In this document: piece by piece, positions 28,086 through 57,332 of the stretch
Numbering within the stretch: the stretch's first letter is position 1
Layout of the letters: every line of letters starts with the position of its first letter
Source of the DNA: a virus
Lineage: Duplodnaviria > Caudoviricetes
Reading direction: 5' to 3' (one strand)
DNA length: 64,000 bases
Virus record (IMG/VR): IMGVR_UViG_3300035180_001680
Translations under genes and position numbers: made by a program
The notes under the pieces: generated by a model
What the model saw: the letters and a program-made list of their open reading frames with translations, nothing else
The model's database searches: none
Told to the model about the DNA's origin: nothing

Positions 28086-28225
28086 AGTGCGTCCTTTGTT
28101 ATAATTATTATTGTTTATTATTCTAATAATTATACACCGAGAAGATAAAGAAAAACAACATTTTAATGTTCAATTGACTACTTTCTTATTGTTGCTACAC
28201 CAGAAACATTTTCCAGTGTGCAGTT

Positions 28226-28768
28226 TCATTTCGAAAGTCCTTTAATAAATTCGTTGTATGGTTTAGCCCGTTCTGTATCTTTTGCAATAGCAGGTTCTGC
28301 TTCAGGCCATCTTCCCTTGATGATATAACGAGCATACCAATAAGCCCACCGTGGATCTTTTGTAATAACATGTTCTGCTTTAGGAAATCTTCCTTTGATG
28401 ACATCACGAGCATACCAATAAGCCCAACGTGGATCTTTTGCAATAGCAGGTTCTCCTTCAGGCCATCTTCCTTCAATGACATCACGAGCATACAAAAAAG
28501 CCCATTCTGGATCTTTTGCAATAGCAGGTTCTCCTTCAGGCCACTTTCCCTTGATGACATCACGATCATAACTATAAGCCCACTGTGGATCTGTTGCAAC
28601 AACAGATTCTGCTTCTTTTTTCTGTTGTGCGTTTAATTTTCCACTTTTTAGTGCCTCATATGCCATCTGTGGAGTAGCCATGTGCTTTTTATCAAACCCA
28701 TGCAATTTTTCTGGGTTTGAATGATATTTGTATAAATCCATTGCTTCAAACAAGTCGCGTAATTTCAT
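28226..28768 (-). CDS. Array unit 27 (180 aa, 4 repeats, last)
   Basis: Head, repeats and cap. Confidence 0.9.
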   Translation of the reverse strand: MKLRDLFEAMDLYKYHSNPEKLHGFDKKHMATPQMAYEALKSGKLNAQQKKEAESVVATDPQWAYSYDRDVIKGKWPEGEPAIAKDPEWAFLYARDVIEGRWPEGEPAIAKDPRWAYWYARDVIKGRFPKAEHVITKDPRWAYWYARYIIKGRWPEAEPAIAKDTERAKPYNEFIKGLSK

Positions 28769-29385
28769 TTCGAAAGTCCTTTGATGAATTCGTTGTAATT
28801 TTTAGCCCACTTTGGATCTTTTGCAATAGCAGGTTCTCCTTCAGGCCATCTTTCTTTGATGACATCACGAGCATACCCATAAGCCCACTTTGGATCTTTT
28901 GCAATGACAGATTCTGCTTCAGGCCATCTTCCTTTGATGACATCACGAGCATACCCATAAGCCAACTCTGGATCTTTTGCAATAGCAGGTTCTCCTTTAG
29001 GAAACCTTCCTTTGATGACCTCACGAGCATACCAATAAGCCAAACGTGGATCTTTTGCAACAGTAGGTTCTGCTTCAGGAAATCTTTCCTTGATGACATC
29101 ACGAGCATAAATATAAGCCAAACGTGGATCTTTTGCAATGACAGATTCTCCTTTAGGCCATCTTCCCTTGATGACATCATGAGCATACTCATAAGCCCAC
29201 TTTGTGTCTGTTGCAACAACAGATTCTGCTTCTTTCTTTTGTTGTGCATTCAGTTTTCCACTCTCCAGTGCCTCATATGCCATCTCAGGCGTAGCCATGT
29301 GCTTTTTATCAAACCCATGCAATTTTTCTGGGTTTGAATGATATTTGTATAAATCCATTGCTTCGAGTAAGTCACGTAGTTTCAT
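28765..29385 (-). CDS. Array unit 26 (206 aa, 5 repeats)
   Basis: Leader MKLRDLLEA. Confidence 0.9.
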   Translation of the reverse strand: MKLRDLLEAMDLYKYHSNPEKLHGFDKKHMATPEMAYEALESGKLNAQQKKEAESVVATDTKWAYEYAHDVIKGRWPKGESVIAKDPRLAYIYARDVIKERFPEAEPTVAKDPRLAYWYAREVIKGRFPKGEPAIAKDPELAYGYARDVIKGRWPEAESVIAKDPKWAYGYARDVIKERWPEGEPAIAKDPKWAKNYNEFIKGLSK

Positions 29386-30080
29386 TTCGAAAGTCCTTTG
29401 ATGTCTTGTTTATACCGTTTAGCATATGTTGGATCTTTTGCAATAGCAGGTTCTTATTCAGGCCATCTTCCTTTGATGACAGAACGAGCATAATTATAAG
29501 TCCAACGTGGGTCTTTTGCAATAGCAGGTTCTGCTTCAGGCCATCTTCCTTTGACGGCATCACGAGCATACAAAAAAGCCCATTCTGGATCTTTTGCAAT
29601 AGCAGGTTCTCCTTTAGGAAATCTTTCTTTGATAACATTACTAGCATACCAATAAGCCCACCGTGGATCTTTTGCAATAGCAGGTTCTCCTTCAAACCAT
29701 CTTCCTTTGATGACATCACGAGCATACAAAAAAGCCCATTCTGGGTCTTTTGCAATAGCAGGTTCTGCTTCAGACCATCTTCCTTTGATGACATCACGAG
29801 CATACAAAAAAGCCCATTCTGGGTCTTTTGCAATAGCAGGTTCTGCTTCAGACCATCTTCCTTTGATGACATTACGAGCATAACTATAAGCCCACTGTGG
29901 ATCTGTTGCAACAACAGACTCTGCTTCTTTTTTCTGTTGTGTGTTTAATTTTCCACCTTTTAATGCAAAAAAAGCCATCTCAGGAGTAGCCATGTGTTTT
30001 TTATCAAACCCATGCAATTTTTCTGGATTCGAGTGATATTTGTATAAATCCATTGCTTCAAACAAGTCGCGTAATTTCAT
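29382..30080 (-). pseudogene. Array unit 25, premature stop (208 of 232 aa, C-cap lost)
   Basis: In-frame TAA at 29454-29456 (GAA TAA GAA where siblings have GAA GCA/GGA GAA). The cap downstream is intact and in frame. Confidence 0.8.
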
Positions 30081-30775
30081 TTCGAAAGTCCTTTGATGTC
30101 TTGTTTATACCGTTTAGCATATGTCGGATCTTTTGCAATAACAGGTTCTGCTTCAGGAAATCTTCCTTTGATGACATTACGAGCATAATACGAAGCCCAC
30201 TGTGGATCTTTTGCAATAACAGATTCTGCTTCAGGAAATCTTCCTTTGATGACATTACGAGCATACCAATAAGCATACTGTGGATCTTTTGCAATAGCAG
30301 GTTCTCCTTCAGGCCATCTTCCTTTGATGGCACCACGAGCATACTCATAAGCCCATTCTGGATGTTTTGCAATAGCAGGTTCTCCTTCAGGCCATCTTCC
30401 TTTAATGACATCATGAGTATACCAATAAGCATACTCTGGATGTTTTGCAATAGCAGGTTCTCCTTCAGGCCATCTTCCTTTAGTGACATCATGAGTATAC
30501 CAATAAGCATACTTTGGATCTTTTGCAATAGCAGGTTCTCCTTCAGGCCATCTTCCTTTGATGGCATCACGAGCGTACTCATAAGCCCACCGTGGATCTG
30601 TTGCAACAACAGACTCTGCTTCTTTTTTCTGTTGTGCGTTTAATTTTCCACCTTTTAATGATTCAAAAGCCATCTCAGGCGTAGCCATGTGCTTTTTATC
30701 ATATCCATGCAATTTCTCTGGATTTGAGTGGTATTTGTATAAGTCCATTGCTTCGAATAAGTCACGTAATTTCAT
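30077..30775 (-). CDS. Array unit 24 (232 aa, 6 repeats)
   Basis: Cap allele DPTYAKRYKQDIKGLSK. Confidence 0.9.
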   Translation of the reverse strand: MKLRDLFEAMDLYKYHSNPEKLHGYDKKHMATPEMAFESLKGGKLNAQQKKEAESVVATDPRWAYEYARDAIKGRWPEGEPAIAKDPKYAYWYTHDVTKGRWPEGEPAIAKHPEYAYWYTHDVIKGRWPEGEPAIAKHPEWAYEYARGAIKGRWPEGEPAIAKDPQYAYWYARNVIKGRFPEAESVIAKDPQWASYYARNVIKGRFPEAEPVIAKDPTYAKRYKQDIKGLSK

Positions 30776-31314
30776 TTTGAAAGTCCTTTAATAAATTCGT
30801 TGTATGGTTTAGCCCACTCTGGATGTTTTGCAATAACAGGTTCTGCTTCAGGAAATCTTTCTTTGATGACATCACGAGCATACCCATAAGCCCACTCTGG
30901 ATCTTTTGCAATAACAGATTCTGCTTCAGGAAATCTTCCTTTGATGACATTACGAGCATACTCATAAGCCCAATCTGCTTTTTTTGCAATAGCAGGTTCT
31001 CCTTCAGGCCATCTTCCTTTGATGACATAACGAGCATACAAACAAGCCCAACGTGTATCTTTTGCAATGACAGATTCTCCTTTAGGAAATCTTTCTTTGA
31101 TGACATTACGAGCATACAAACAAGCCCATCTTGGATCTGTTGCAACAACAGACTCTGCTTCTTTTTTCTGTTGTGCGTTTAATTTTTCACCTTTTAATGC
31201 TTCAAAAGCCATCTCAGGCGTAGCCATGTGCTTTTTATCATATCCATGTAACTTCTCTGGATTTGAATGATATTTATATAAATCCATTGCTTCGAACAGA
31301 TCACGTAATTTCAT
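30772..31314 (-). CDS. Array unit 23 (180 aa, 4 repeats)
   Basis: Head, repeats and cap. Confidence 0.9.
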   Translation of the reverse strand: MKLRDLFEAMDLYKYHSNPEKLHGYDKKHMATPEMAFEALKGEKLNAQQKKEAESVVATDPRWACLYARNVIKERFPKGESVIAKDTRWACLYARYVIKGRWPEGEPAIAKKADWAYEYARNVIKGRFPEAESVIAKDPEWAYGYARDVIKERFPEAEPVIAKHPEWAKPYNEFIKGLSK

Positions 31315-31931
31315 TTCGAAAGTCCTTTAACAAATTCTTTGTATTTTTTAGCCCATTCTGGATCTTTTGCAATAACAGGTTCTGCTTCAGGAAATCTTCT
31401 TTTAATGACATCACGAGCATACCCATAAGCCCACTGTGGATCTTTTGCAATAGCAGGTTCTCCTTTAGGAAATCTTCTTTCGATGACTTGTTGAGCATAC
31501 ACATAAGCCCAATCTGCTTTTTTTGCAATAGCAGGTTCTCCTTTAGGAAATCTTTCCTTGATGACATTACGAGCATACAAACAAGCCCACTTTGGATCTT
31601 TTGCAATAGCAGGTTCTCCTTCAGGCCATCTTCCTTTAGTGACATCATGAGTATACCAATAAGCATACTCTGGATCTTTTGCAATAGCAGGTTCTGCTTC
31701 AGGAAATCTTCCTTTGATGATATCATCAGCATAATTATAAGCCCAACGTGGATCTTTTGCAATAACAGACTCTGCTTCTTTTTTCTGTTGTGCGTTTAAT
31801 TTTCCACTCTTTAGTGCTTCAAAAGCCATCTCAGGAGTAGCCATGTGTTTTTTATCATATCCATGTAACTTCTCTGGATTTGAGTGGTATTTGTATAAAT
31901 CCATTGCTTCGAATAAGTCACGTAATTTCAT
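31311..31931 (-). CDS. Array unit 22 (206 aa, 5 repeats)
   Basis: Head, repeats and cap. Confidence 0.9.
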   Translation of the reverse strand: MKLRDLFEAMDLYKYHSNPEKLHGYDKKHMATPEMAFEALKSGKLNAQQKKEAESVIAKDPRWAYNYADDIIKGRFPEAEPAIAKDPEYAYWYTHDVTKGRWPEGEPAIAKDPKWACLYARNVIKERFPKGEPAIAKKADWAYVYAQQVIERRFPKGEPAIAKDPQWAYGYARDVIKRRFPEAEPVIAKDPEWAKKYKEFVKGLSK

Positions 31932-32548
31932 TTTGAAAGTCCTTTGATGAATTCGTTGTATGGCTTAGCCCATTCTGGAACTTTTGCAATAACAGGTTCT
32001 GCTTCAGGAAATCTTCCTTTGATGACAGAACGAGCATAATATGAAGCCCACTGTGGATCTCTTGCAATAGCAGGTTCTCCTTCAGTCCATCTTCCTTTGA
32101 TGACATCACTAGCATACCAATAAGCCCAACGTGGATCTTTTGCAATAACAGATTCTGCTTCAGGAAATCTTCCTTTGATGACATCACGAGCATAATATGA
32201 AGCCCACTCTGGATGTTTTGCAATAACAGATTCTGCTTCAGGAAATCTTCCTTTGATGACTTGTTGAGCATACACATAAGCCCAATCTGCTTTTTTTGCA
32301 ATAACAGGTTCTGCTTCAGTAAATCTTCTTTCGATGACTTGTTGAGCATACCTATAAGCCCACCGTGGATCTTTTGCAACAACAGACTCTGCTTCTTTTT
32401 TCTGTTGTGCATTTAATTTTCCACTCTTTAATGCTTCAAAAGCCATCTCAGGCGTGGCCATGTGTTTTTTATCATATCCATGCAATTTTTCTGGGTTTGA
32501 ATGATATTTGTATAAATCCATTGCTTCGAATAGATCACGCAATTTCAT
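31928..32548 (-). CDS. Array unit 21 (206 aa, 5 repeats)
   Basis: Head, repeats and cap. Confidence 0.9.
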   Translation of the reverse strand: MKLRDLFEAMDLYKYHSNPEKLHGYDKKHMATPEMAFEALKSGKLNAQQKKEAESVVAKDPRWAYRYAQQVIERRFTEAEPVIAKKADWAYVYAQQVIKGRFPEAESVIAKHPEWASYYARDVIKGRFPEAESVIAKDPRWAYWYASDVIKGRWTEGEPAIARDPQWASYYARSVIKGRFPEAEPVIAKVPEWAKPYNEFIKGLSK

Positions 32549-33165
32549 TTCGAAAGTCCTTTAATAAATTCGTTGTATTTTTTAGCCCACTCTGGATTTT
32601 TTGCAATAGCAGGTTCTGCTTCAGGCCATCTTCCTTTGATGACATCACGAGCATACCAATAAGCATACTGTGGATCTTTTGCAATAGCAGGTTCTCCTTC
32701 AGGCCATCTTCCTTTGATGCTATCATCAGCATACTCATAAGCCCATTCTGGATCTTTTGCAATAGCAGGTTCTGCTTCAGGCCATCTTCCTTTGATGACA
32801 TTATGAGCATAATATGTGGCCCACTCTGGATGTTTTGCAATAACAGGTTCTGCTTTAGGCCATCTTCCTTCAATGATATCATCAGCATACCAATAAGCCC
32901 ACTGTGGGTTTTTTGCAATAACAGGTTCTGCCTCAGGCCATCTTCCTTGGATGATAGAACGAGCATACCAACAAGCAAACTTTGGATCTGTTGCAACAAC
33001 AGACTCTGCTTCTTTTTTCTGTTGCGCATTCAGTTTTCCACTCTCTAGTGCCTGATATGCCATCTCAGGCGTAGCCATGTGCTTTTTATCATATCCATGT
33101 AACTTCTCTGGATTTGAGTGGTATTTGTATAAATCCATCGCTTCGAATAAGTCACGTAGTTTCAT
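32545..33165 (-). CDS. Array unit 20 (206 aa, 5 repeats)
   Basis: Head, repeats and cap. Confidence 0.9.
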   Translation of the reverse strand: MKLRDLFEAMDLYKYHSNPEKLHGYDKKHMATPEMAYQALESGKLNAQQKKEAESVVATDPKFACWYARSIIQGRWPEAEPVIAKNPQWAYWYADDIIEGRWPKAEPVIAKHPEWATYYAHNVIKGRWPEAEPAIAKDPEWAYEYADDSIKGRWPEGEPAIAKDPQYAYWYARDVIKGRWPEAEPAIAKNPEWAKKYNEFIKGLSK

Positions 33166-33782
33166 TTTGAAAGTCCTTTGATGAATTCGTTGTATTTTTT
33201 AGCCCACTTTGGATCTTTTGCAATAACAGGTTCTCCTTCAGGCCATCTTCCTTTGATGACATAACGAGCATACTCATAAGCCCAACCTGGATCTTTTGCA
33301 ATAACAGGTTCTGCTTCAGTCCATCTTCCTTTGATGACATAACGAGCATACCAATAAGCCCACCTTGGGTCTTTTACAATAGCAGGTTCTGCCTTAGGCC
33401 ATCTTCCTTGGATGATAGAGCGAGCATATTCATAAGCCCAATCTGCTTTTTTTGCAATAACAGGTTCTGCTTCAGGCCATCTTCCTTTGATGACTTGTTG
33501 AGCATACACACAAGCCCAATCTGCTTTTTTTGCAATAACAGGTTCTGCTTCAGGAAATCTTCTTTCGATGACTTGTTGGGCGTACTCATAAGCCCACCGT
33601 GGATCTGTTGCAACAACAGATTCTGCTTCTTTCTTTTGTTGTGCATTTAATTTTCCACTCTTTAGTGCCTCATAAGCCATCTCAGGAGTAGCCATGTGTT
33701 TTTTATCATATCCATGTAACTTCTCTGGATTTGAATGATATTTGTATAAATCCATTGCTTCGAATAGATCACGTAATTTCAT
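33162..33782 (-). CDS. Array unit 19 (206 aa, 5 repeats)
   Basis: Head, repeats and cap. Confidence 0.9.
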   Translation of the reverse strand: MKLRDLFEAMDLYKYHSNPEKLHGYDKKHMATPEMAYEALKSGKLNAQQKKEAESVVATDPRWAYEYAQQVIERRFPEAEPVIAKKADWACVYAQQVIKGRWPEAEPVIAKKADWAYEYARSIIQGRWPKAEPAIVKDPRWAYWYARYVIKGRWTEAEPVIAKDPGWAYEYARYVIKGRWPEGEPVIAKDPKWAKKYNEFIKGLSK

Positions 33783-34399
33783 TTTGAAAGTCCTTTGATG
33801 TCTTGTTTATACCGTTTAGCATATGTTGGGTCTTTTGCAATAGCAGGTTCTCCTTCAATCCATCTTCCTTTGATGACATCACTAGCATACCAATAAGCCC
33901 AACGTGGATCTTTTGCAATAACAGATTCTGCTTCAGGAAATCTTCCTTTGATGACATCGCGAGCATACAACCAAGCCCATTCTGGATCTTTTACAATAAC
34001 AGATTCTGCTTCAGGAAATCTTCCTTTAATGACATCATGAGCGTACATATAAGCCGTCCGTGGATTTTTTGCAATAACAGATTCTGCTTCAGGAAATCTT
34101 CCTTTGATGAAATCACGAGCATACAAAAAAGCCCATTCTGGATCTTTTGCAATAACAGATTCTGCTTCAGGCCATCTTCCTTTGATGATATCATCAACAT
34201 ACCTATAAGCCCAACGTGGATCTTTTGCGATAACAGACTCTGCTTCTTTTTTCTGTTGTGCATTTAATTTTCCACCTTTTAATGCTCCAAAAGCCATCTC
34301 AGGCGTAGCCATGTGTTTTTTATCAAACCCATGCAATTTTTCTGGGTTTGAATGATATTTGTATAAATTCATCGCTTCGAATAAGTCGCGTAGTTTCAT
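33779..34399 (-). CDS. Array unit 18 (206 aa, 5 repeats)
   Basis: Cap allele DPTYAKRYKQDIKGLSK. Confidence 0.9.
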   Translation of the reverse strand: MKLRDLFEAMNLYKYHSNPEKLHGFDKKHMATPEMAFGALKGGKLNAQQKKEAESVIAKDPRWAYRYVDDIIKGRWPEAESVIAKDPEWAFLYARDFIKGRFPEAESVIAKNPRTAYMYAHDVIKGRFPEAESVIVKDPEWAWLYARDVIKGRFPEAESVIAKDPRWAYWYASDVIKGRWIEGEPAIAKDPTYAKRYKQDIKGLSK

Positions 34400-35094
34400 T
34401 TCGAAAGTCCTTTGATGAATTCGTTGTATTTTTTAGCCCACCTTGGATCTTTTACAATAGCAGGTTCTCCTTTAGGAAATCTTCCGTTGATGACATCATG
34501 AGCATACCAATAAGCCGTCCGTGGATTTTTTGCAACAGCAGGTTCTCCCTTAGGAAATCTTTCCTCGATGACATCACGAGCATACCAATAAGCATACTCT
34601 GGATCTTTTGCAATAACAGGTTCTGCTTCAGGCCATCTTCCTTTGATGACATTACGAACATACTCATAAGCCCATTCTGGATCTTTTGCAATAACAGGTT
34701 CCGCTTTAGGCCACCTTCCCTTAATGACATCATGAGCATACCAATAAGCATACTCTGGATCTTTTGCAATAACAGGTTCCGCTTTAGGCCACCTTCCCTT
34801 AATGACATCATGAGCATACCAATAAGCATACTCTGGATCTTTTGTAATAACAGGTTCCGCTTTAGGAAATCTTCCTTCAATGACATCACGAGCATACCAA
34901 TAAGCCCACTTTATATCTGTTGCAACAACAGATTCTGCTTCTTTTTTCTGTGGTGTATTTAATTTTCCACTCTTTAGTGCCTCATATGCCATCTGTGGAG
35001 TAGCCATGTGCTTTTTATCATATCCATGCAATTTCTCTGGATTCGAGTGATATTTGTATAAATCCATCGCTTCGAATAGATCACGTAGTTTCAT
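34396..35094 (-). CDS. Array unit 17 (232 aa, 6 repeats)
   Basis: Contains an exact 78-bp tandem duplication at 34676-34844. Confidence 0.9.
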   Translation of the reverse strand: MKLRDLFEAMDLYKYHSNPEKLHGYDKKHMATPQMAYEALKSGKLNTPQKKEAESVVATDIKWAYWYARDVIEGRFPKAEPVITKDPEYAYWYAHDVIKGRWPKAEPVIAKDPEYAYWYAHDVIKGRWPKAEPVIAKDPEWAYEYVRNVIKGRWPEAEPVIAKDPEYAYWYARDVIEERFPKGEPAVAKNPRTAYWYAHDVINGRFPKGEPAIVKDPRWAKKYNEFIKGLSK

Positions 35095-35789
35095 TTTGAA
35101 AGTTCTTTGATGTATTGTTTATAATATTTAGCATACTCTGGATCTTTTGCAATAACAGATTCTCCTTTAGGAAATCTTTCTTTGATGACATCATGAGCGT
35201 ACATATAAGCCGTCCGTGGATTTTTTGCAATAGCAGGTTCTCCTTCAGGCCATCTTCCTTTGATGACATCACGAGCATACCAAAAAGCATAATCTGGATC
35301 TTTTGCAATGACAGATTCTCCTTTAGGAAATCTTTCTTTAATGATATAACGAGCATACTCATAAGCCCAATCTGCTTTTTTTGCAACAGCAGGTTCTCCT
35401 TTAGGAAATCTTTCTTTGATGATATCATGAGCGTACATATAAGCCATCCGTGGATCTTTTGCAATAACAGATTCTGCTTCAGGAAATCTTCCTTTGATGA
35501 AATCACGAGCATACAAAAAAGCCCATTCTGGATCTTTTGCAATAGCAGGTTCTCCTTTAGGAAATCTTTCTTTGATGACATTACTGACATACCAATAAGC
35601 CCACTTTGTATCTGTTGCAACAACAGACTCTGCTTCTTTTTTCTGTTGTGCATTTAGTTTTCCACTCTTTAGTGCCTCATATGCCATCTCAGGCGTAGCC
35701 ATGTGCTTTTTATCATATCCATGCAATTTCTCTGGATTTGAGTGGTATTTGTATAAGTTCATCGCTTCGAATAAGTCACGTAATTTCAT
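35091..35789 (-). CDS. Array unit 16 (232 aa, 6 repeats)
   Basis: Head, repeats and cap. Confidence 0.9.
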   Translation of the reverse strand: MKLRDLFEAMNLYKYHSNPEKLHGYDKKHMATPEMAYEALKSGKLNAQQKKEAESVVATDTKWAYWYVSNVIKERFPKGEPAIAKDPEWAFLYARDFIKGRFPEAESVIAKDPRMAYMYAHDIIKERFPKGEPAVAKKADWAYEYARYIIKERFPKGESVIAKDPDYAFWYARDVIKGRWPEGEPAIAKNPRTAYMYAHDVIKERFPKGESVIAKDPEYAKYYKQYIKELSK

Positions 35790-36484
35790 TTTGAAAGTCC
35801 TTTGATGAATTCTTTGTAATTTTTAGCCAGGTGTGGATCTTTTGCAATGACAGATTCTGCTTCAGGAAATCTTTCCTTGATGACATCACGAGCATACCCA
35901 TAAGCATAATCTGGATCTTTTGCAATAGCAGGTTCTCCTTTGGGAAATCTTTCTTTAATGACATCACGAGCATAACTATAAGCCCACCGTGGATCTTTTG
36001 CAATAACAGGTTCTGCTTCAGGAAATCTTCCTTTGATGACAGAATGAGCATACCAATAAGCATACTCTGGATCTTTTGCAATAACAGGTTCTCCTTTAGG
36101 AAATCTTCCTTTGATGACATCACGAGCATAATATGAAGCCCACCGTGGATCTTTTGCAATAACAGACTCTGCTTCAGGAAAGCTTCCTTTGATGACATCA
36201 CGAGCATAATATGAAGCAAACTTTGGATCTGTTGCAACAACAGGTTCTCCTTCAGGAAATCTTCCTTTGATGACATCACGAGCATAATATGAAGCAAACT
36301 TTGGATCTGTTGCAACAACAGATTCTGCTTCTTTCTTTTGTTGTGCATTCAGTTTTCCACTCTCTAGTGCCTCATAGGCCATCTCAGGAGTAGCCATGTG
36401 TTTTTTATCATATCCATGTAACTTCTCTGGATTCGAGTGGTATTTGTATAAATCCATTGCTTCGAGTAGATCACGCAATTTCAT
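35786..36484 (-). CDS. Array unit 15 (232 aa, 6 repeats)
   Basis: Leader MKLRDLLEA. Tandem DPKFASYYARDVIKG modules. Confidence 0.9.
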   Translation of the reverse strand: MKLRDLLEAMDLYKYHSNPEKLHGYDKKHMATPEMAYEALESGKLNAQQKKEAESVVATDPKFASYYARDVIKGRFPEGEPVVATDPKFASYYARDVIKGSFPEAESVIAKDPRWASYYARDVIKGRFPKGEPVIAKDPEYAYWYAHSVIKGRFPEAEPVIAKDPRWAYSYARDVIKERFPKGEPAIAKDPDYAYGYARDVIKERFPEAESVIAKDPHLAKNYKEFIKGLSK

Positions 36485-39645: not shown

Positions 39646-40262
39646 TTCGAAAGTCCTTTGATGTCTTGTTTATACCGTTTAGCATATGTTGGATCTTTTG
39701 CAATAACAGGTTCTGCTTCAGGAAATCTTCCTTTGATGACATCACGAGCATACCCATAAGCAAACTCTGGATCTTTTGCAATAACAGGTTCTGCTTTAGG
39801 CCATCTTCCTTTGATGACATCATGAGTATACCAATAAGCCGACTTTGGATATTTTGCAATAACAGATTCTGCTTCAGAAAATCTTCCTTTGATGACATCA
39901 CGAGCATAATATGAAGCCCAACCTGGATCTTTTGCAATAACAGGTTCTGCTTCAGGCCATCTTCCTTTGATGACATCACGAGCATACAAACAAGCCCACT
40001 GTGGATTTTTTGCAATAGCAGGTTCTCCTTTAGGAAATCTTCTTTCGGTGACATCACGAGCATAATAATGAGCCAACTCTGGAACTTTTGCAATAACAGA
40101 CTCTGCTTCTTTTTTCTGTTGTGCGTTTAATTTTCCACTCTTTAGTGCCTCATAGGCCATCTCAGGAGAAACCATGTGCCTTTTATCATATCCATGTAAC
40201 TTCTCTGGATTTGAGTGGTATTTGTATAAATTCATTGCTTCGAATAAGTCACGTAGTTTCAT
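39642..40262 (-). CDS. Array unit 9 (206 aa, 5 repeats)
   Basis: Cap allele DPTYAKRYKQDIKGLSK. Confidence 0.9.
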   Translation of the reverse strand: MKLRDLFEAMNLYKYHSNPEKLHGYDKRHMVSPEMAYEALKSGKLNAQQKKEAESVIAKVPELAHYYARDVTERRFPKGEPAIAKNPQWACLYARDVIKGRWPEAEPVIAKDPGWASYYARDVIKGRFSEAESVIAKYPKSAYWYTHDVIKGRWPKAEPVIAKDPEFAYGYARDVIKGRFPEAEPVIAKDPTYAKRYKQDIKGLSK

Positions 40263-40879
40263 TTCGAAAGTCCTTTAATAAATTCGTTGTAATTTTTAGT
40301 CGACTGTAGGTTTTTTGCAATAGCAGGTTCTCCTTCAGGCCATCTTCCTTTGATGACATGACGAGCATAATATGAAGCCCACCGTGGAGCTTTTGCAATA
40401 GCAGGTTCTCCTTCAGGCCATCTTCCTTTGATGACATCACGAGCATACCCATAAGCATACTCTGGGTGTTTTGCAATGACAGATTCTCCTTTAGGAAATC
40501 TTTCTTCGATGACATAACGAGCATAATATGAAGCCCATTGTGGATCTTTTGCAATAGCAGGTTCTCCTTCAGGCCATCTTCCTTTAATGACACCATGAGC
40601 ATACCAATAAGCATACTCTGGGTGTTTTGCAATGATAGATTCTCCTTTAGGAAATCTTTCTTTGATGACTCGTTGAGCATACTCATAAGCCCACTGTGGA
40701 TCTGTTGCAACAACAGACTCTGCTTCTTTTTTCTGTTGTGCATTCAGTTTTCCACTCTCTAGTGCCTCATAAGCCATCTCAGGAGTAGCCATGTGCTTTT
40801 TATCAAACCCATGCAATTTTTCTGGGTTTGAATGATATTTGTATAAATCCATTGCTTCGAATAAGTCACGTAATTTCAT
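40259..40879 (-). CDS. Array unit 8 (206 aa, 5 repeats)
   Basis: Head, repeats and cap. Confidence 0.9.
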   Translation of the reverse strand: MKLRDLFEAMDLYKYHSNPEKLHGFDKKHMATPEMAYEALESGKLNAQQKKEAESVVATDPQWAYEYAQRVIKERFPKGESIIAKHPEYAYWYAHGVIKGRWPEGEPAIAKDPQWASYYARYVIEERFPKGESVIAKHPEYAYGYARDVIKGRWPEGEPAIAKAPRWASYYARHVIKGRWPEGEPAIAKNLQSTKNYNEFIKGLSK

Positions 40880-41730
40880 TTTGAAATTCCTTTAATAAAT
40901 TCGTTGTATTTTTTAGCCCACTTTGGATGTTTTGCAATAACAGATTCTGCTTCAGGAAATCTTCCCCTGATGACATTATGAGCATACCAATAAGCCCAAC
41001 GTGGATCTTTTGCAATAACAGGTTCTGCTTCAGGCCATCTTCCTTTAATGAAATCACGAGCATACGTATAAGCCCAATCTGCTTTTTTTGCAATAGCAGG
41101 TTCTGCTTCAGGCCATCTTCCTTTGATGACATCACGAGCATACAAAAAAGCCCGTTCTGGATCTTTTGCAATAGCAGGTTCTCCTTTAGGAAATCTTTCT
41201 TTGATGACAAAATGAGCGTAATATGAAGCCCACTGTGGATCTGTTGCAATAGCAGGTTCTCCTTTAGGCCATCTTCCTTTAATGACATCACGAGCATAAC
41301 TATAAGCATACCCTGGAACTTTTGCAATAGCAGGTTCTGCTTCAGGCCATCTTTCTTTGATGACATCACGAGCGTACCAATAAGCCGACTCTGGAACTTT
41401 TGCAAAGACAGATTCTCCTTCAGGCCATCTTCCTTTGATGACATCACGAGCATACCAATAAGCCAACTCTAGATCTTTTGCAATAACAGGTTCTCCTTTA
41501 GGAAACCTTCCTTTGATGAAATCACGAGCGTACTCATAAGCCCATCTTGGATCTTTTGCAACAACAGATTCTGCTTCTTTTTTCTGTTGTGCATTTAATT
41601 TTCCACCTTTTAATGCTTCAAAAGCCATCTCAGGAGTAGCCATGTGTTTTTTATCAAACCCATGCAATTTCTCTGGATTCGAGTGATATTTGTATAAATC
41701 CATTGCTTCGAATAAGTCACGTAGTTTCAT
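40876..41730 (-). CDS. Array unit 7 (284 aa, 8 repeats)
   Basis: Head, repeats and cap. Confidence 0.9.
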   Translation of the reverse strand: MKLRDLFEAMDLYKYHSNPEKLHGFDKKHMATPEMAFEALKGGKLNAQQKKEAESVVAKDPRWAYEYARDFIKGRFPKGEPVIAKDLELAYWYARDVIKGRWPEGESVFAKVPESAYWYARDVIKERWPEAEPAIAKVPGYAYSYARDVIKGRWPKGEPAIATDPQWASYYAHFVIKERFPKGEPAIAKDPERAFLYARDVIKGRWPEAEPAIAKKADWAYTYARDFIKGRWPEAEPVIAKDPRWAYWYAHNVIRGRFPEAESVIAKHPKWAKKYNEFIKGISK

Positions 41731-42815
41731 TTCGAAAGTCCTTTGATGAATTCGTTGTATTTTTTAGTCCATCTTGGATCTTTTGCAATAACAGATTCTG
41801 CTTCAGGCCATCTTCCTTTAATGACATGACGAGCATACCAATAAGCATACTCTGGATGTTTTACAATAGCAGGTTCTCCTTCAGACCATCTTCCTTTGAT
41901 GACATAACGAGCATACTCATAAGCCCACCGTGGGTTTTTTGCAATAACAGGTTCTCCTTCAGGCCATCTTCCTTTGATGACATAATGAGCATACACACAA
42001 GCCCACTGTGGATCTTTTGCAATAACAGGTTCTCCTTTAGGAAACCTTCCTTTGATGACATTGAGAGCATACTCATAAGCCAACTCTGGATCTTTTGCAA
42101 TAACAGGTTCTCCTTTAGGAAACCTTCCTTTGATGACATTGAGAGCATACGCATAAGCCCAATATGCTTTTTTTGCAATAGCAGGTTCTCCTTCAGGCCA
42201 TCTTCCTTTAATGAAATCACGAGCATACATATAAGCCCAACCTGGATCTTTTGCAATAACATGTTCTACTTCAGGCCATCTTCCTTTGATGACATAACGA
42301 GCATACTCACAAGCCCAATGTGGATCTTTTGCAATAGCAGGTTCTCCTTTAGGAAACCTTCCTTTAATGAAATCATGAGCATACGTATAAGCCCAATCTG
42401 CTTTTTTTGCAATAGCGGGTTCTCCTTCAGGCCATCTTCCTTTGATGAAATTACGAGCATACGCATAAGCCCACTTTGGATCTTTTGCAATAACAGGTTC
42501 TCCTTTAGTAAACCTTCCTTTGATGACATCTGTAGCATACTCATAAGCCAACTCTGGAACTTTTGCAATGACAGATTCTGCTTTAGGCCATCTTCCTTTG
42601 ATGACATTACGAGCATACCTATAAGCCCACGTTGTATCTGTTGCAACAACAGATTCTGCTTCTTTCTTTTGTTGTGCATTTAATTTTCCACTCTTTAGTG
42701 CCTCATAGGCCATCTCAGGAGTAGCCATGTGTTTTTTATCAAACCCATGCAATTTTTCTGGATTCGAGTGGTATTTGTATAAATCCATTGCTTCGAATAA
42801 GTCACGTAGTTTCAT
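41727..42815 (-). CDS. Array unit 6 (362 aa, 11 repeats, longest)
   Basis: Head, 11 repeats and cap. Confidence 0.9.
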   Translation of the reverse strand: MKLRDLFEAMDLYKYHSNPEKLHGFDKKHMATPEMAYEALKSGKLNAQQKKEAESVVATDTTWAYRYARNVIKGRWPKAESVIAKVPELAYEYATDVIKGRFTKGEPVIAKDPKWAYAYARNFIKGRWPEGEPAIAKKADWAYTYAHDFIKGRFPKGEPAIAKDPHWACEYARYVIKGRWPEVEHVIAKDPGWAYMYARDFIKGRWPEGEPAIAKKAYWAYAYALNVIKGRFPKGEPVIAKDPELAYEYALNVIKGRFPKGEPVIAKDPQWACVYAHYVIKGRWPEGEPVIAKNPRWAYEYARYVIKGRWSEGEPAIVKHPEYAYWYARHVIKGRWPEAESVIAKDPRWTKKYNEFIKGLSK

Positions 42816-43585
42816 TTCGAAAGTCCTTTGATGAATTCGTTGTATTTTTTAGCCCACTGTGGATCTTTTGCAATAGCAGGTTCTCCTTCAGGCCATCTTC
42901 CTTTGATGACATCACGAACATACAAAAAAGCCAACTCTGGATTTTTTGCAATAACAGGTTCTGCTTCATGCCATCTTCCTTTGATGACATAACGAGCATA
43001 CGCATAAGCATACTCTGGAACTTTTGCAATAGCAGGTTCTCCTTTAGGAAACCTTCCTTTGATAACATTATGAGCATACAAATAAGCCAACTCTGGATCT
43101 TTTGCAAAGACATATTCTCCTTTAGGAAATCTTTCTTTAATGACATCTTCAGCATACTCATAAGCCCACTGTGGATTTTTTGCAATAGCAGGTTCTCCTT
43201 CAGGCCATCTTCCTTTGATGACACCACGAGCATACCAATAAGCATACTTTGGATCTTTTGCAATAGCAGGTTCTCCTTCAGGCCATCTTCCTTTGATGAC
43301 ATAATGATACTCATAAGCCCACTTTGGATCTTTTGCAATAACAGGTTCTGCTTCAGGCCATCTTCCTTTGATGACATTACAAGCATACTCATAAGCCCAC
43401 CGTGGATCTGTTGCAACAACAGATTCTGCTTCTTTCTTTTGTTGTGCATTCAGTTTTCCACTCTCTAGTGCCCCATAGGCCATCTCAGGCGTAGCCATGT
43501 GTTTTTTATCATATCCATGCAATTTTTCTGGATTTGAGTGGTATTTGTATAAATCCATTGCTTCAAATAAGTCACGTAATTTCAT
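42812..43585 (-). CDS. Array unit 5 (257 aa, 7 repeats, one codon deleted)
   Basis: Repeat 2 reads AYEYHYVIK, lacking the conserved Ala9. Confidence 0.9.
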   Translation of the reverse strand: MKLRDLFEAMDLYKYHSNPEKLHGYDKKHMATPEMAYGALESGKLNAQQKKEAESVVATDPRWAYEYACNVIKGRWPEAEPVIAKDPKWAYEYHYVIKGRWPEGEPAIAKDPKYAYWYARGVIKGRWPEGEPAIAKNPQWAYEYAEDVIKERFPKGEYVFAKDPELAYLYAHNVIKGRFPKGEPAIAKVPEYAYAYARYVIKGRWHEAEPVIAKNPELAFLYVRDVIKGRWPEGEPAIAKDPQWAKKYNEFIKGLSK

Positions 43586-44358
43586 TTTGAAATTCCTTTG
43601 ATGAATTGGTTATACTGTTTAGCATATGTTGGGTCTTTTGCAATAACAGGTTCTGCTTCAGGAAATCTTCCTTTGATGACATCACGAGCATACTCATAAG
43701 CCCACCGTGGATCTTTTGCAATAGCAGGTTCTCCTTCAGGCCATCTTCCTTTAATGACAGAACGAGCATAGTATAAAGCCCAATCTGCTTTTTTTGCAAT
43801 AACAGGTTCTCCTTCAGACCATCTTCCTTTGATGACATCACGAGCATAACCATAAGCCCAATCTGGATCTTTTGCAATAGCAGGTTCTCCTTTAGGCCAT
43901 CTTCCTTTGATGATATTACGAGCATACTCATAAGCCCACTGTGGACCTGTTGCAATAGCAGGTTCTCCTTTAGGCCATCTTCCTTTGATGACATCACGAG
44001 CATACCAATAAGCCAACCGTGGATCTTTTGCAATAACAGGTTCTGCTTCAGGCCATCTTCCTTTGATGGCATCGCGAGCATACCAATAAGCCAACTCTGG
44101 ATCTTTTGCAATAACAGGTTCTGCTTCAGGCCATCTTCTTTTGATGACAGAACGAGCATACCAATGAGCATACTCTGGATCTGTTACAATAACAGATTCT
44201 GCTTCTTTCTTTTGTTGTGCGTTTAATTTTCTACTCTTTAGTGCTTTAAAAGCCATCTCAGGCGTAGCCATGTGCTTTTTATCAAACCCATGCAATTTTT
44301 CTGGGTTTGAATGATATTTGTATAAATCCATCGCTTCGAATAAGTCACGTAGTTTCAT
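43582..44358 (-). CDS. Array unit 4 (258 aa, 7 repeats)
   Basis: Head, repeats and cap. ATGA overlap. Confidence 0.9.
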   Translation of the reverse strand: MKLRDLFEAMDLYKYHSNPEKLHGFDKKHMATPEMAFKALKSRKLNAQQKKEAESVIVTDPEYAHWYARSVIKRRWPEAEPVIAKDPELAYWYARDAIKGRWPEAEPVIAKDPRLAYWYARDVIKGRWPKGEPAIATGPQWAYEYARNIIKGRWPKGEPAIAKDPDWAYGYARDVIKGRWSEGEPVIAKKADWALYYARSVIKGRWPEGEPAIAKDPRWAYEYARDVIKGRFPEAEPVIAKDPTYAKQYNQFIKGISK

Positions 44359-45209
44359 TTTGAAATTCCTTTGATGTATTGTTTATAATATTTAGCATAC
44401 TCTGGATGTTTTGCAATAACAGGTTCTCCTTCAGGAAATCTTCCTTTGATGACATCACGAGCATACCAATAAGCATACTCTGGATGTTTTGCAATAACAG
44501 GTTCTCCTTCAGGAAATCTTCCTTTGATGACATCACGAGCATACCAATATGCTGACCCTGACTCTTTTGCAATAGCAGGTTCTCCTTCAGTCCATCTTCC
44601 TTTAATTACAGAACGAGCATAATGTAAAGCCCACCGTGGATCTTTTGCAATAGCAGGTTCTGCTCCAGGCCATCTTCCTTTGATGACATAACAAGCATAC
44701 TCATAAGCCCACTCTAGATCTTTTACAATAGCAGGTTCTCCTTCAGGCCATCTTCCTTCGACGACATCGTGAGCGTACATATAAGCCATCCGTGGATCTT
44801 TTGCAATAACAGGTTCTGCTTTAGGCCATCTTCCCTTGATGACATCACGAGCATAAATATAAGCCCACTTTGGATCTTTTGCAATAACAGGTTCTGTTTT
44901 AGGCCATCTTCCTTTGATGACATAACGAGCATACCTATAAGCCCACTCTGGAACTTTTGCAAAGACAGATTCTCCTTCAGGCCATCTTCCTTTGATGACA
45001 TCACGAGCATAAATGTAAACCAACTCTGGATCTGTTGCAACAACAGATTCTGCTTCTTTTCTCTGTTGTGCGTTTAATTTTCCACCTTTTAATGCTTCAA
45101 AAGCCATCTCAGGAGTAGCCATGTGTTTTTTATCAAACCCATGCAATTTTTTTGGATTCGAGTGATATTTGTATAAATCCATTGCTTCGAATAAGTCGCG
45201 TAGTTTCAT
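44355..45209 (-). CDS. Array unit 3 (284 aa, 8 repeats)
   Basis: Contains an exact 78-bp tandem duplication near its 3' end. Confidence 0.9.
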   Translation of the reverse strand: MKLRDLFEAMDLYKYHSNPKKLHGFDKKHMATPEMAFEALKGGKLNAQQRKEAESVVATDPELVYIYARDVIKGRWPEGESVFAKVPEWAYRYARYVIKGRWPKTEPVIAKDPKWAYIYARDVIKGRWPKAEPVIAKDPRMAYMYAHDVVEGRWPEGEPAIVKDLEWAYEYACYVIKGRWPGAEPAIAKDPRWALHYARSVIKGRWTEGEPAIAKESGSAYWYARDVIKGRFPEGEPVIAKHPEYAYWYARDVIKGRFPEGEPVIAKHPEYAKYYKQYIKGISK

Positions 45210-45904
45210 TTCGAAAGTCCTTTGATGAATTCGTTGTATTTGTTAGCCCATTCTGGATCTTTTGCAATAGCAGGTTCTCCTTCAGGCCATCTTCCTTTAA
45301 TGACATGACGAGCATACACATAAGCCCACTTTGGATCTTTTGCAATAGCAGGTTCTGCTTCAGGAAATCTTTCTTTAATGACATAATAAGCATAATATGA
45401 AGCCGACTGTAGATCTTTTACAATAGCAGGTTCTCCTTCAGGCCATCTTCCTTTAATGACATGACGAGCATACAACCAAGCCCATTCTGGATCTTTTGCA
45501 ATAACAGGTTCTGCTTTAGTCCATCTTCCTTTAATGACATGATGAGCATACCAACAAGCCCACTCTGGATCTTTTGCAATAACAGGTTCTGCTTTAGGCC
45601 ATCTTCCTTTGATGACATAACGAGCATAACTATAAGCCCACTCTGAATCTTCTGCAATAACAGGTTCTACTTTAGGCCATCTTCCTTTGATGACATAACG
45701 AGCATACCTATAAGCCCATCGTGGATCTGTTGCAATAACAGACTCCGCTTCTTTTTTCTGTTGTGCGTTTAGTTTTCCACTCTTTAGTGCCTCATAGGCC
45801 ATCTCAAGAGTAATTATGTGCTTTTTATCATATCCAGGTAACGTCTCTGGATTCGAGTGATATTTGTATAAGTCCATTGCTTCAAATAAGTCACGTAATT
45901 TCAT
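45206..45904 (-). CDS. Array unit 2 (232 aa, 6 repeats)
   Basis: Head variant ETLPGYDKKHI, shared with unit 11. Confidence 0.9.
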   Translation of the reverse strand: MKLRDLFEAMDLYKYHSNPETLPGYDKKHIITLEMAYEALKSGKLNAQQKKEAESVIATDPRWAYRYARYVIKGRWPKVEPVIAEDSEWAYSYARYVIKGRWPKAEPVIAKDPEWACWYAHHVIKGRWTKAEPVIAKDPEWAWLYARHVIKGRWPEGEPAIVKDLQSASYYAYYVIKERFPEAEPAIAKDPKWAYVYARHVIKGRWPEGEPAIAKDPEWANKYNEFIKGLSK

Positions 45905-46521
45905 TTTGAAAGTCCTTTAATAAATTCGTTGTATTTGTTAGCCCACTGTGGATCTTTTGCAATAGCAGGTTCTCCTTTAGGAAACCTTCCTTTGATGACA
46001 TGACGAGCATACGCATAAGCCCAATATGCTTTTTTTGCAATAGCAGGTTCTGCTTCAGGCCATCTTCCTTTAATGACATAACGAGCATACCCACAAGCAT
46101 ACTCTGGATCTTTTGCAATAGCAGGTTCTCCTTTAGGAAACCTTCCTTTGATGACATTGAGAGCATACGCATAAGCCCAATATGCTTTTTTTGCAATAGC
46201 AGGTTCTGCTTCAGGCCATCTTCCTTTGATGACATCACGAGCATACGCATGAACCCACAGTAGATCTTTTGCAATAACAGGTTCCGCTTTAGGCCATCTT
46301 CCCTTAATGACATAATGAGCATACCAATAAGCCCACTGTGGATCTGTTGCAACAACAGACTCTGCTTCTTTTTTCTGTTGTGCGTTTAATTTTCCACCTT
46401 TTAATGCTCTAAAAGCCATCTCAGGCGTAGCTATGTGTTTTTTATCATATCCATGTAACTTCTCTGGGTTTGAATGATATTTGTATAAATCCATTGCTTC
46501 GAATAAGTCGCGCAATTTCAT
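45901..46521 (-). CDS. Array unit 1 (206 aa, 5 repeats)
   Basis: Head, repeats and cap. Starts 6 nt after the 526-aa ORF. Confidence 0.9.
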   Translation of the reverse strand: MKLRDLFEAMDLYKYHSNPEKLHGYDKKHIATPEMAFRALKGGKLNAQQKKEAESVVATDPQWAYWYAHYVIKGRWPKAEPVIAKDLLWVHAYARDVIKGRWPEAEPAIAKKAYWAYAYALNVIKGRFPKGEPAIAKDPEYACGYARYVIKGRWPEAEPAIAKKAYWAYAYARHVIKGRFPKGEPAIAKDPQWANKYNEFIKGLSK

Positions 46522-46527
46522 TTTGAT

Positions 46528-48108
46528 TCACTTCTGTGACATGCTCATATATTTGTCTTTAATTATTTTTTCTAGGAACTTACTCCATTCTGGATATGAT
46601 GAAAGAAGTTTTATTTCTGTCTTGGTGATTTCTTGGTCTCGTTCGTTCATTAGCTGTCCTGATTCGTAATGAAATTGAAATTTACGTTGTCGACCCTGAG
46701 CGTCCTTCTCTGCTATTATAATCACGAAGAGTGGATCATTTTTAGAATAATAATCGAAGTTGCTTTTATTTACAGTACACCATTTTGTACCTGATGCATA
46801 ATAGCATGCTGCTTCGTGTGTCAGTAACCTCACAGCGAGGAACTTATCTGTTTTGATTAGCACTTCAACACCAGTCTGTTTGGTTTCTTTTTTAACGGAA
46901 CGATTACTTTTATGCTCTTTTGTTCCTTCAACTGCATCATACAATTGGTCCAAATTTGCAAATCTGTTTATGTCTTTTTGTTCTGGAGGCAACGAATTTT
47001 TCTTTTTGATAAACTCCGATAACGTATCCTTTATGCGTTCAACGTCCTCAACACGAAATTGTCTCAATGAATACATTCGTAAAATAAATGTTATAAAAGC
47101 TCCACGCTCTCCTGATGGGTCGGCTTGACTTAGTGTCGTGATGATGTGTTTGACATTTTGTGCCGGTTCGTGATCTTTTAATAAAGATTTCGCAGAACCA
47201 TCCTTGTCTGCTGCATCGAGTAATTTCGTTCCAAACTGTTTTGTTAATAATTCCATTTTTTGTTCAATACCTTCACTTAACAAAAATTGTAAAAGCGTTA
47301 TTTTTTTCATTTTATTTTCTTTCAACCGTGGATTTTCTTTTTTATGTGATAACACTTTTTCGTCACTTGTTGGCCACGAATATACATATTTCCCTGCAAA
47401 ATCTTTCACTAACATAAAAGTATATCCAAGAGTTTTGAAAATTTTAATATCAGCTGAGTAATCTGGAATTCTGTCATGAAAAATTAACTCTGCTTCTGTA
47501 TCACGACGCCCGTGATGTAGTACATAATTCGCGACTGCGTTAATTTCTTTATCTGTATTTGGTCCTTGACCCCCAAGACTTGCCAACACTTGGATGTCTT
47601 CTATTTTTGTATCAGTGAAAGGTTTAAAAACTGCGCGACCGATAGAGCGAATACCCGATGCCAAATAACCAGGTAGGTGTTTAACCATGTGCCACTCTGG
47701 GATGATTTTGTTGTCATTCGTAGATAATGCTTTCGACATTAATTTAGGTAAATTTTGTGGTGTAACAAGATCTGTTGATGGTTTTGTTTTAGGTGAGGAA
47801 GTTCTCCCCCCTGCATTTCTTGCAGCTTGTTCATCAGATATTTCATCTTGATGTGACAAATCTGCTTTGCTTAATTTTTTAGTAGCCTCGTGTGAAGACA
47901 AAGATCGTGTTTTGGCTGCTGTGGCTTCACGTGATGCTGTCTTCAATTTATTTGCAGACAGTTTTTCTTTTTCTTTTTCTTCTTTTGTTTTATATTCTTT
48001 TTTGTCAGTAGTAGATGGAAACTGATCCTGTTCATGGTCCAAACGAATTTGGTCAAATTTATCTTTTATTGATGAATGTGTTTTGGTATTAGTTTGTTGT
48101 TTTTTCAT
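46528..48108 (-). CDS. Late protein heading the array operon (526 aa, possibly two fused genes)
   Basis: TATAAATA promoter upstream. Internal MKKITLLQFLLSE at 47310. The C-half has the ACYYASGTKWCT...KFQFHYESGQLMNE motif. Confidence 0.65.
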   Translation of the reverse strand: MKKQQTNTKTHSSIKDKFDQIRLDHEQDQFPSTTDKKEYKTKEEKEKEKLSANKLKTASREATAAKTRSLSSHEATKKLSKADLSHQDEISDEQAARNAGGRTSSPKTKPSTDLVTPQNLPKLMSKALSTNDNKIIPEWHMVKHLPGYLASGIRSIGRAVFKPFTDTKIEDIQVLASLGGQGPNTDKEINAVANYVLHHGRRDTEAELIFHDRIPDYSADIKIFKTLGYTFMLVKDFAGKYVYSWPTSDEKVLSHKKENPRLKENKMKKITLLQFLLSEGIEQKMELLTKQFGTKLLDAADKDGSAKSLLKDHEPAQNVKHIITTLSQADPSGERGAFITFILRMYSLRQFRVEDVERIKDTLSEFIKKKNSLPPEQKDINRFANLDQLYDAVEGTKEHKSNRSVKKETKQTGVEVLIKTDKFLAVRLLTHEAACYYASGTKWCTVNKSNFDYYSKNDPLFVIIIAEKDAQGRQRKFQFHYESGQLMNERDQEITKTEIKLLSSYPEWSKFLEKIIKDKYMSMSQK

Positions 48109-48132
48109 GATAAACCCTCATAATATAAGATG

Positions 48133-48140
48133 TATTTATA
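48133..48140 (-). promoter_or_regulatory. T4-type late promoter TATAAATA for the 526-aa gene and array operon
   Basis: Exact consensus on the minus strand, 25 nt upstream of the ATG at 48108. Confidence 0.75.
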
Positions 48141-48529
48141 ACAAGATTGGTTTTGTTATCAATCTTACAGATAATATCAAAAGGGTGGTGTAAATGTGAA
48201 TACCTCACTCGTTCCAATTTGTTCTTTATCTGAAAAATCAGAGAGTGTGTAACGTTTTGATTATTGGTCAGGGACGAGAAATATTTCAGACAATTTCATT
48301 TAAATTTTGATTCAAGAGAAAACACAAATTCGTCCCAACCTACCTTGATCCACCTTGGAAGTTTTTCCAATCATGAGCAGAATGTTGATACTTTATTACA
48401 CCCTTCGAGTAAAGAGGGTAAATCGTGACATCGAGTTTTGAATGAATGTATAAGTGCAGTCGTTTGTGTTACCCCATCAGTTAAGTTATACACTTAAACA
48501 CAAAACATAGTTGGGGTCAACAATTATTT

Positions 48530-57261: not shown

Positions 57262-57332
57262 TAAAACATAAATATGTTGTTATATGAGTAAAGTCTGTTC
57301 TTACTTATGTGACTGTGTTGATATTTATGTTG

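Follow-up and report, generated by a model that had tools for sequence, protein, structure and literature searches.

A 64,000-nucleotide stretch of DNA from an uncultured giant T4-like virus of the Caudoviricetes (IMG/VR record IMGVR_UViG_3300035180_001680; hereafter the window) carries, on its minus strand from 48140 to 28129, a compact block composed of a head gene and 27 tandem solenoid-repeat genes (the units), each beginning with the same nine-residue leader or a single-residue variant of it. We propose that the head gene and the units form one operon with a T4-type late promoter that would be read by a gp55-like sigma factor, and that the leader, MKLRDL(F/L)E|A, would be cut after its Glu by a T4-type prohead protease, as would the polyprotein linkers of related phages. 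The trimmed protein would begin a single residue ahead of the usual N-terminus of the family, and the units, as basic internal proteins, would be packed into the head and later exit it together with the DNA. We place the probability of this whole explanation at about 0.4. Its steps differ in strength: it is likely that the operon is transcribed late, cleavage after E8 is an even bet, and packaging and ejection are somewhat doubtful. The actual late timing, cleavage, encapsidation, ejection and anti-defence role of the units are what we infer from the genes described below.

The proposed operon and its probable late promoter

The head gene (46528..48108, minus strand) encodes 526 residues and is followed after 6 nt by the array (28226..46521, minus strand), in which successive units are coupled through ATGA, each ATG overlapping the preceding TGA. 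A preliminary description of this DNA, made from its sequence alone, had counted 25 variant proteins. All 27 unit sequences are distinct and 25 of them are intact; the array counts two further units, one frameshifted (38949..39645, minus strand, in the pieces 39130-39645 and 38949-39320) and one that lacks its C-terminal cap (29454-30080; feature 29386..30080, minus strand) and is followed by a 68-nt gap.

Each unit consists of the 9-residue leader, a 52-residue N-module, a run of 4 to 11 repeats of 26 residues each and a cap with a KGLSK end, with lengths of 180, 206, 232, 257/258, 284 or 362 residues and masses of 21-42 kDa. Residues 1 to about 61 are near-invariant. The isoelectric points of 26 of the 27 units are basic (8.7-9.6), a charge that fits what would be an internal protein. 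An AlphaFold model of one unit is an alpha-solenoid (predicted local distance difference test, pLDDT, 93.8; predicted template modelling score, pTM, 0.84), with helices of 7 and 12 residues alternating every 26 residues as stacked two-helix repeats. The modelled stacking resembles that of alpha-solenoid binders (HEAT, ARM and DUF4116-like); the unit model had no Foldseek match to a solved family in the PDB at E ≤ 1e-3 (top TM-score 0.27). No Pfam or PHROG family reached threshold on the units, no anchor or fibre domain was detected with either collection, and Pfam hits to HTH_35, Tachylectin and similar families were rejected, being below cut-off and placed on the repeat motif. Searching 50,697 phage records with a repeat unit (tblastn) returned no cultured relative, and neither did a megablast search with the neighbouring region. 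The sequencing runs listed for the sequence were four DNA metagenomes, of sediment and microbial mats, with no RNA run among them.

An exact copy of the T4-type late-promoter core, TATAAATA, occupies 48140..48133 (minus strand). It lies 25 nt upstream of the ATG (48108) of the head gene and heads the operon as the preliminary description had stated. In promoters of this type TATAAATA is the -10 element, no -35 element is required, and the usual distance to the start codon of the gene served is about 25-35 nt. The window contains nine TATAAATA sites, compared to 5.8 ± 2.5 expected, and this raw count is unremarkable. Four of the nine (10731, 18460, 48133 and 61682) fall 20-45 nt before the start of a same-strand open reading frame (ORF), the starts being 10761, 18492, 48108 and 61711 and the distances 22-25 nt. 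With a 1.4% chance of falling in this zone for random positions and a 6.2% chance for composition-matched 8-mers, the binomial P-values of the placement are 4e-6 and 1.5e-3, respectively. In T4 (AF158101), the late promoters of gp22, gp24, alt and gp4 have a spacing like that of the head gene. The gp55-like late sigma factor, likewise present as described earlier, is encoded at 57309..57965 on the plus strand (phrog_234 'late sigma transcription factor', E 1.7e-26) and adjoins gp47/gp46-like genes. The earlier reading of TATAAATA as a late promoter is thus well supported by its position, by three equally spaced sites, by the gp55 homologue and by the operons of relatives. Two more ORFs have matches of interest to transcription: a clamp-like ORF (27071-27823) matches phrog_223 weakly (E 2e-5), and the ORF at 53178-53492 matches phrog_639 ('transcriptional regulator'), a match that does not identify gp33.

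The operon's end (28129..28229, minus strand) is composed of a remnant, hairpins, a U-run and TGTATAAT. The remnant, a 19-codon ORF (28170-28229, minus strand) that starts with MKLH and shares an ATGA overlap with the last unit, folds into a 13-bp hairpin and probably represents the decayed start of a unit. An AT-rich weak hairpin with a U-run (28141-28170, minus strand) lies 3′ of the array, and TGTATAAT (28129-28136, minus strand) is the extended -10 element of the downstream clamp-side genes; judged by this element, these replication genes use their own sigma70-type promoter. The array sits between the DNA polymerase and clamp genes on the same strand. Because hairpins, a U-run and the replication genes' own TGTATAAT promoter follow it, we consider it a separate transcription unit.

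At the other end, the 390 nt between the DUF488 gene and the late promoter (48141-48529) contain several hairpins and no convincing ORF, and the region 48050-49100 has no Rfam match. In two relatives (L003 7380-7392 and L012 4152-4166), the late-promoter-like elements CATAAATA and GTAAATAC end only 5-6 nt before the first family gene's ATG, with no Shine-Dalgarno sequence in between, which suggests leaderless late mRNAs in these relatives.

Codon usage at Tyr13 is unusual. The codon is TAC in 26 of the 27 units, compared to 382 TAT and 42 TAC among the array's other Tyr codons, and the flanking codons of L12 (TTA) and K14 (AAA) are nucleotide-invariant. The sole internal TATAAATA of the array (31271..31278, minus strand) arises from a TAT codon at Y13 in the unit at 30772-31314. 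Avoidance of an internal TATAAATA is one possible cause, and we keep the pattern as an observation only; Y13 is also TAC in three units of the relative L007 (7981, 9469 and 10001), in two of which TAT would not make TATAAATA.

The leader and the polyprotein junctions

Every unit begins MKLRD(LFE/LLE)A, with MKLRDLFEA in 23 and MKLRDLLEA in 4 of the 27, and the 27 nt that encode it in unit 1 (46495..46521, minus strand) have an equivalent at the start of each of the others. Across the 27 copies, the codons of L3, R4, D5, L6, F7 and A9 vary synonymously, and the sole replacement is F7L. With many synonymous changes and only this one replacement, the leader is evidently translated and under purifying selection. 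Both of the earlier statements about it, that all units share this start and that the only change within it keeps L-x-E, were confirmed. The conservation of the first nine residues, to which the preliminary description had also pointed, is real; alone it is a weak argument, because residues 10-61 are equally conserved in the 27 units.

By comparison with homologues, the leader is an add-on to the family's usual start. In the top 120 of 1523 homologues, at least 13 have a start Met that coincides with M10 (M-D/N-L-Y-K-x-H), and the nine extra N-terminal residues are confined to this lineage; M10, L12, Y13, H16, P19 and L22 are near-invariant in the alignment. Starts of the leader type (M[KR]xx[DE][LFI]) are absent from all 38 other ORFs of the window. 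On that count we rejected a generic N-terminal bias as the leader's cause in the window; the relatives L011 and L012 differ in this respect. In the AlphaFold unit model, residues 1-10 have a mean pLDDT of 53, compared to 93.8 overall. The relatives' start at M10 and this low local confidence both indicate that the leader is separable from the folded cargo.

In all 27 units, L6-F/L7-E8 is followed by A9, which is the pattern (L/I)-x-E before a small residue, and the same junction recurs in polyproteins. Using unit residues 1-62 as a query for the N-module against 1.8 billion representatives, we found 11 proteins, 6 of which are metagenomic proteins of 819-2253 residues that hold 3-14 in-frame N-module copies. 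These six polyproteins and one shorter protein provide 41 junctions. A Glu is located two residues before the unit at 39 of them, and in 38 of the 41 the residue after the Glu is Ala (30), Ser (5) or Thr (3), followed by I/M/L and then by D/N-L; the residues that precede the Glu are Lys-rich and variable. The window's L-F-E-A-M-D-L is arranged in the same way. In an AlphaFold model of a polyprotein segment, pLDDT is below 50 at both junctions and above 90 in the solenoid, and E-A is therefore predicted to lie in a flexible linker rather than in a folded helix cap.

Of the ten distinct leaders or junctions of NLY/DLY-type units, nine carry L or I at P3, the first position of the motif, and P2, the position after it, is free (F, H, S, L, N, N, D, T, S). 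The motifs are L-F-E and L-L-E in the window's leaders, L-H-E and L-S-E in the L007 group, L-L-E in P0125, I-N-E in L012, L-N-E, I-D-E and L-T-E in P0122, and I-S-E in P0127. To judge by these residues, the (L/I)-x-E of the closest unit types is the motif of T4 gp21, whose cleavage sites follow a hydrophobic (L/I)-x-E (PMC9026906, PMC5694885), as in IAE|A of IPII and IPIII, ITE|A of IPI, LTE|A of gp23, LRE|S of gp24 and LIE|A of gp67 (AF158101). Cleavage is the simplest account of the leader, because it is an add-on, is under selection, has a junction that is conserved in flexible linkers and bears the gp21 signature. The T4-type prohead protease works inside proheads (PMC5694885), and packaging would therefore follow if this protease is the enzyme that cuts.

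The N-module has a conserved feature of its own. Its first ~20 residues (M/I-D-L-K-x-L-V-x-D-P-K-K-L-K-T-Y) are almost invariant among polyprotein units, and the same stretch has a pLDDT of about 45 in the AlphaFold model of P0121:136-305. The start of the N-module (unit residues 10-30) therefore has the look of a linear motif, conserved and in need of a partner.

The head gene, the relatives and known systems

The N-terminal half of the head gene's product belongs to no known family, and its C-terminal half is PcfJ-like, with a GTKWC domain that starts from M267 (46528-47310, minus strand). The head gene has no Pfam match, and the gathering score of PF14284 is not reached; in the nearest ESM Atlas clusters, about one third of the members carry PF14284. 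T175, W177 and C178 are invariant in the alignment A3. The best cultured relative of the C-terminal half, at 34% identity (E 3e-25), is EST35_0205 of PA5oct (MK797984), a Rak2-like jumbo phage with a gp21-like protease (gp152), and the half also matches 10 related Pseudomonas jumbo phages. EST35_0205 is annotated 'structural protein, ESI-MS/MS' (electrospray-ionization tandem mass spectrometry), starts similarly, with MKLFEVFTLYE, and is found among virion-protein genes.

Around residues 261-279, the head gene reads as two proteins in one frame, with Met267 opening a segment homologous to the N-termini of PcfJ-like proteins that stand alone. On either side of M267 are L-K-E and L-S-E sites, which would allow the prohead protease to separate the two halves. 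The PcfJ-like domain is fused to 26-residue repeats in many metagenomic proteins, and in other phages it is fused to leucine-rich (LRR), ankyrin (Ank), DUF4116 or WG repeats (ESM Atlas clusters). A complex prediction for the PcfJ-like half with a unit scored 0.24 against a mark of 0.32, and we used it neither for nor against an interaction. Our look through the literature on PcfJ or DUF4116 in phages found nothing useful.

The relatives' gene neighbourhoods locate the family among structural genes. L007 encodes a portal, a PF03420 protease, a scaffold and gp23, followed on the same strand by three units and a PcfJ-like gene, the latter a 252-residue homologue of the head gene's C-terminal half. 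The head module of L007 recurs in L001 and L003, where three tandem fusions of PcfJ with 26-residue repeats come after it; an ATAAATA element immediately precedes the first of these fusions. One unit and a four-unit polyprotein adjoin gp13-like and sheath genes in L012, and the array of L015 lies 3′ of gp25-like and other baseplate genes. In the 323-kb L011, a 14-unit polyprotein belongs to an operon headed by GATAAATAC, near DNA polymerase B. The PF03420 prohead protease was found in L007 and L003, whose capsid proteins have likely cleavage sites at LAE|T and LKE|S, respectively. These neighbourhoods associate the family with late and structural genes of T4-like phages whose prohead protease is Glu-specific.

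The arrays themselves are variable. L015 (10435-12360) and L016 (3148-5151) contain the same phage array from two samples with different unit content, the sizes being 167, 141, 167 and 167 residues in L015 and four times 167 residues in L016; therefore, arrays vary between populations.

Mullaney and Black are said to have described the capsid-targeting sequences of T4 internal proteins in 1996. To our knowledge, capsid-targeting leaders and injected anti-restriction proteins have been found only in T-even phages, along with the propeptides of phiKZ-like phages, and cover a handful of unrelated cargoes. In T4, IPI, IPII, IPIII and Alt carry capsid-targeting sequences (PMC3012670, PMC9026906). 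The units resemble the T4 internal proteins in having a short leader (8 residues here, 10-19 in T4) with an MK start and a hydrophobic-x-E followed by Ala, in being basic and in diversifying the cargo behind a constant leader. The operon, like T4 alt, has a T4-type late promoter before it, and the phage is T4-like in its core (gp55, gp46/47, gp43, gp45 and gp5). In contrast, the units have no homology to IPI, IPII, IPIII or Alt (Pfam, PHROG and tblastn), and they number 25 intact paralogues of one alpha-solenoid family rather than three unrelated small proteins. For the units, packaging, cleavage and ejection are predictions.

Among phiKZ-like phages, SPN3US gp53 and gp54 and phiKZ gp93 are ejection or inner-head proteins that bear propeptides (PMC5694885). 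They share with the units a conserved N-terminal stretch with x-E motifs among paralogues, and on the phiKZ-like side the setting is a giant phage with many internal proteins. Unlike the window, these phages use (A/S/G)-x-E and propeptides mostly longer than 100 residues, are not T4-like in transcription and have no 27-gene tandem array. The PcfJ-repeat fusions (with LRR, Ank, DUF4116 or WG repeats, or those of L001 and L003) have the same design of a conserved domain with a variable repeat binder, and in L001 and L003 they are tandem paralogues downstream of gp23; in the window, however, domain and repeats are separate genes, and each unit brings an N-module and a leader of its own. Leaders that target the capsid, and internal proteins trimmed by a protease, are already known. 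A diversified solenoid family of 25 members with such a leader, together with polyproteins that share its junction, would be new, and we found no published description of a leader-tagged solenoid family or of polyprotein versions.

Alternative readings, consequences and the wider window

Several observations weigh against a late operon of cleaved, packaged proteins. The targeting residues of T4 are Y4 and F7 (PMC9026906). Compared to MKTYQEFIAE, the leader matches only M1, K2, F7 and the terminal hydrophobic-x-E, its residue 4 is Arg instead of Tyr, and its predicted cut follows residue 8 instead of residue 10. The earlier view of the leader as capsid-targeting-like is thus partly supported: it gains from the add-on nature of the leader, its selection, the E-A junction and (L/I)-x-E, and it falls short in the partial match and the missing Y4. 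Unrelated proteins start with M[KR]xx[DE][LFI] in L012 (5 of 17, one of them sigma-like) and in L011 (3 of 22), so that N-termini of this kind may be common to the proteins of these phages in general. In the 14-unit tandem array of L015/L016, the units start at MNLY without a leader; a cleavable leader would therefore be unnecessary for the family's function. The MKLHE leader of L007 may be untranslated, since the preceding stop codon lies 2 nt before its second Met. Polyproteins of the KxLV type carry V or T at P3 rather than L or I, a looser fit to the protease motif, and the array units, at 21-42 kDa, are bigger than T4 IPI* to IPIII. The virion list of PA5oct contains 93 virion-associated proteins, of which 7 are 'virion-unrelated enzymes' (PMC7318152), and the detection of EST35_0205 in virions is therefore suggestive, not proof; this homologue is also a single gene with no array, and its own C-terminal half is not made of the 26-residue repeat. 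Finally, a sigma70-like promoter candidate (TTCACA, an 18-nt spacer and a TG-extended TATTAT; 10 of 12 matches) lies at 48171..48200 on the minus strand, with 31 nt separating it from the late core downstream. As the stretch from the polymerase operon to the head gene also showed no terminator, the block may be transcribed early.

The main rival explanation accepts the units as late virion or assembly proteins that are neither cleaved nor ejected. The leader and N-module would together act as a docking peptide, attaching every solenoid to one common structural protein (the PcfJ-like product, perhaps) and yielding an externally displayed or assembly-associated repertoire of binders, and the E-A of the polyproteins would be part of a linear motif rather than a cut site. 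We regard this as an unlikely but serious alternative. In fusion proteins, the PcfJ-like domain replaces the N-module directly before the repeats, the same domain joins LRR, Ank, DUF4116 and WG repeats in other phages, and PcfJ-like and unit genes occur together in both L007 and the window. The start of the N-module combines strong conservation with a low-confidence model in the polyprotein segment, which is what a binding motif should show; in L012 and L015 the family's neighbours are baseplate, neck and sheath genes; and the leaderless L015 array works without a propeptide. Docking leaves unexplained, however, why (L/I)-x-E|A with a free P2 recurs at leaders and junctions of independent lineages and why purifying selection acts on a nine-residue add-on that most relatives lack, and the units have no detected anchor or fibre domain.

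Cleavage and packaging would also be dispensable if the units were expressed early or throughout infection, from the sigma70-like promoter (TTCACA-18-TGaTATTAT, 48200..48171) or by read-through from the polymerase operon with its missing terminator, and acted in the cytoplasm; TATAAATA would merely add late expression, and the leader would serve translation or stability. The position of the array between DNA polymerase and clamp genes on their strand agrees with this explanation, as does that of the L011 polyprotein near DNA polymerase B. We judge it improbable. Sigma70-like sites in the scanned stretch are no commoner than in shuffles, which makes this one a mere candidate, whereas the late core is canonically placed, the family belongs to structural or late operons in five relatives, and the downstream replication genes have their own extended -10 element after a hairpin and U-run. 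Least probable of all is a leader without function, whether left over from a polyprotein linker, produced by the recombination through which units spread, or reflecting a general N-terminal habit. The junction KGLSK-stop/MKLRDLFEA does sit where the polyprotein linker does, an unrelated L007 gene has the same first five codons and upstream bases as the units there, and MK..E-type starts are common in L011 and L012. A leader of this kind is difficult to reconcile with free synonymous change and a single conservative replacement over 27 copies, or with a pattern that none of the other 38 ORFs shares.

In its fullest form, the proposal of cleaved internal proteins states that the capsid is filled with about 25 different leader-tagged solenoid binders, that the prohead protease removes their leaders at (L/I)-x-E|A and cuts the polyproteins of related phages (up to 14 units) at the same junction, and that the binders are ejected with the DNA and neutralize various host defence proteins ahead of all phage gene expression. 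The features above make loading into the capsid plausible; we advance the complete scenario as a speculation that is rather less than probable. If true, it would extend the leader principle to environmental giant T4-like phages and couple it to a far larger, recombining family of designed-looking binders, made as separate genes or as polyproteins. It would provide a testable case of a phage that brings a ready-made, pre-loaded repertoire of counter-defence proteins into the cell, a short natural tag with which foreign proteins could be loaded into T4-like heads, and a function for an unannotated repeat family of more than 1500 metagenomic members. Should the proposal fail, an explanation will still be needed for the conserved leader, for the E-A junction and for an N-module that is flexible although conserved.

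The surroundings of the array are a distant T4-like phage gene set. A family-B DNA polymerase with an intein (LAGLIDADG domain) is encoded at 49066-52860 on the minus strand, and the window also encodes a gp46/gp47-like nuclease, a RuvC-like nuclease, an RNase H-like exonuclease and a clamp-like protein, together with the structural gp5-like hub lysozyme and gp25-like wedge protein. Homing-endonuclease-like genes that combine DUF7487 with an MTES_1575/Vsr-like domain occur twice in the window (19201-20721, plus strand, and 22396-23898, minus strand), and L003 has a homing-endonuclease-like gene (5639-7357) between gp23 and the PcfJ-repeat genes. A 99-residue ORF (24794-25093, minus strand) has a Cys/His-rich start that may resemble those of PAAR or spike-tip proteins. 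It is preceded, 40 nt upstream, by CATAAATA, which may be a further late-promoter variant.

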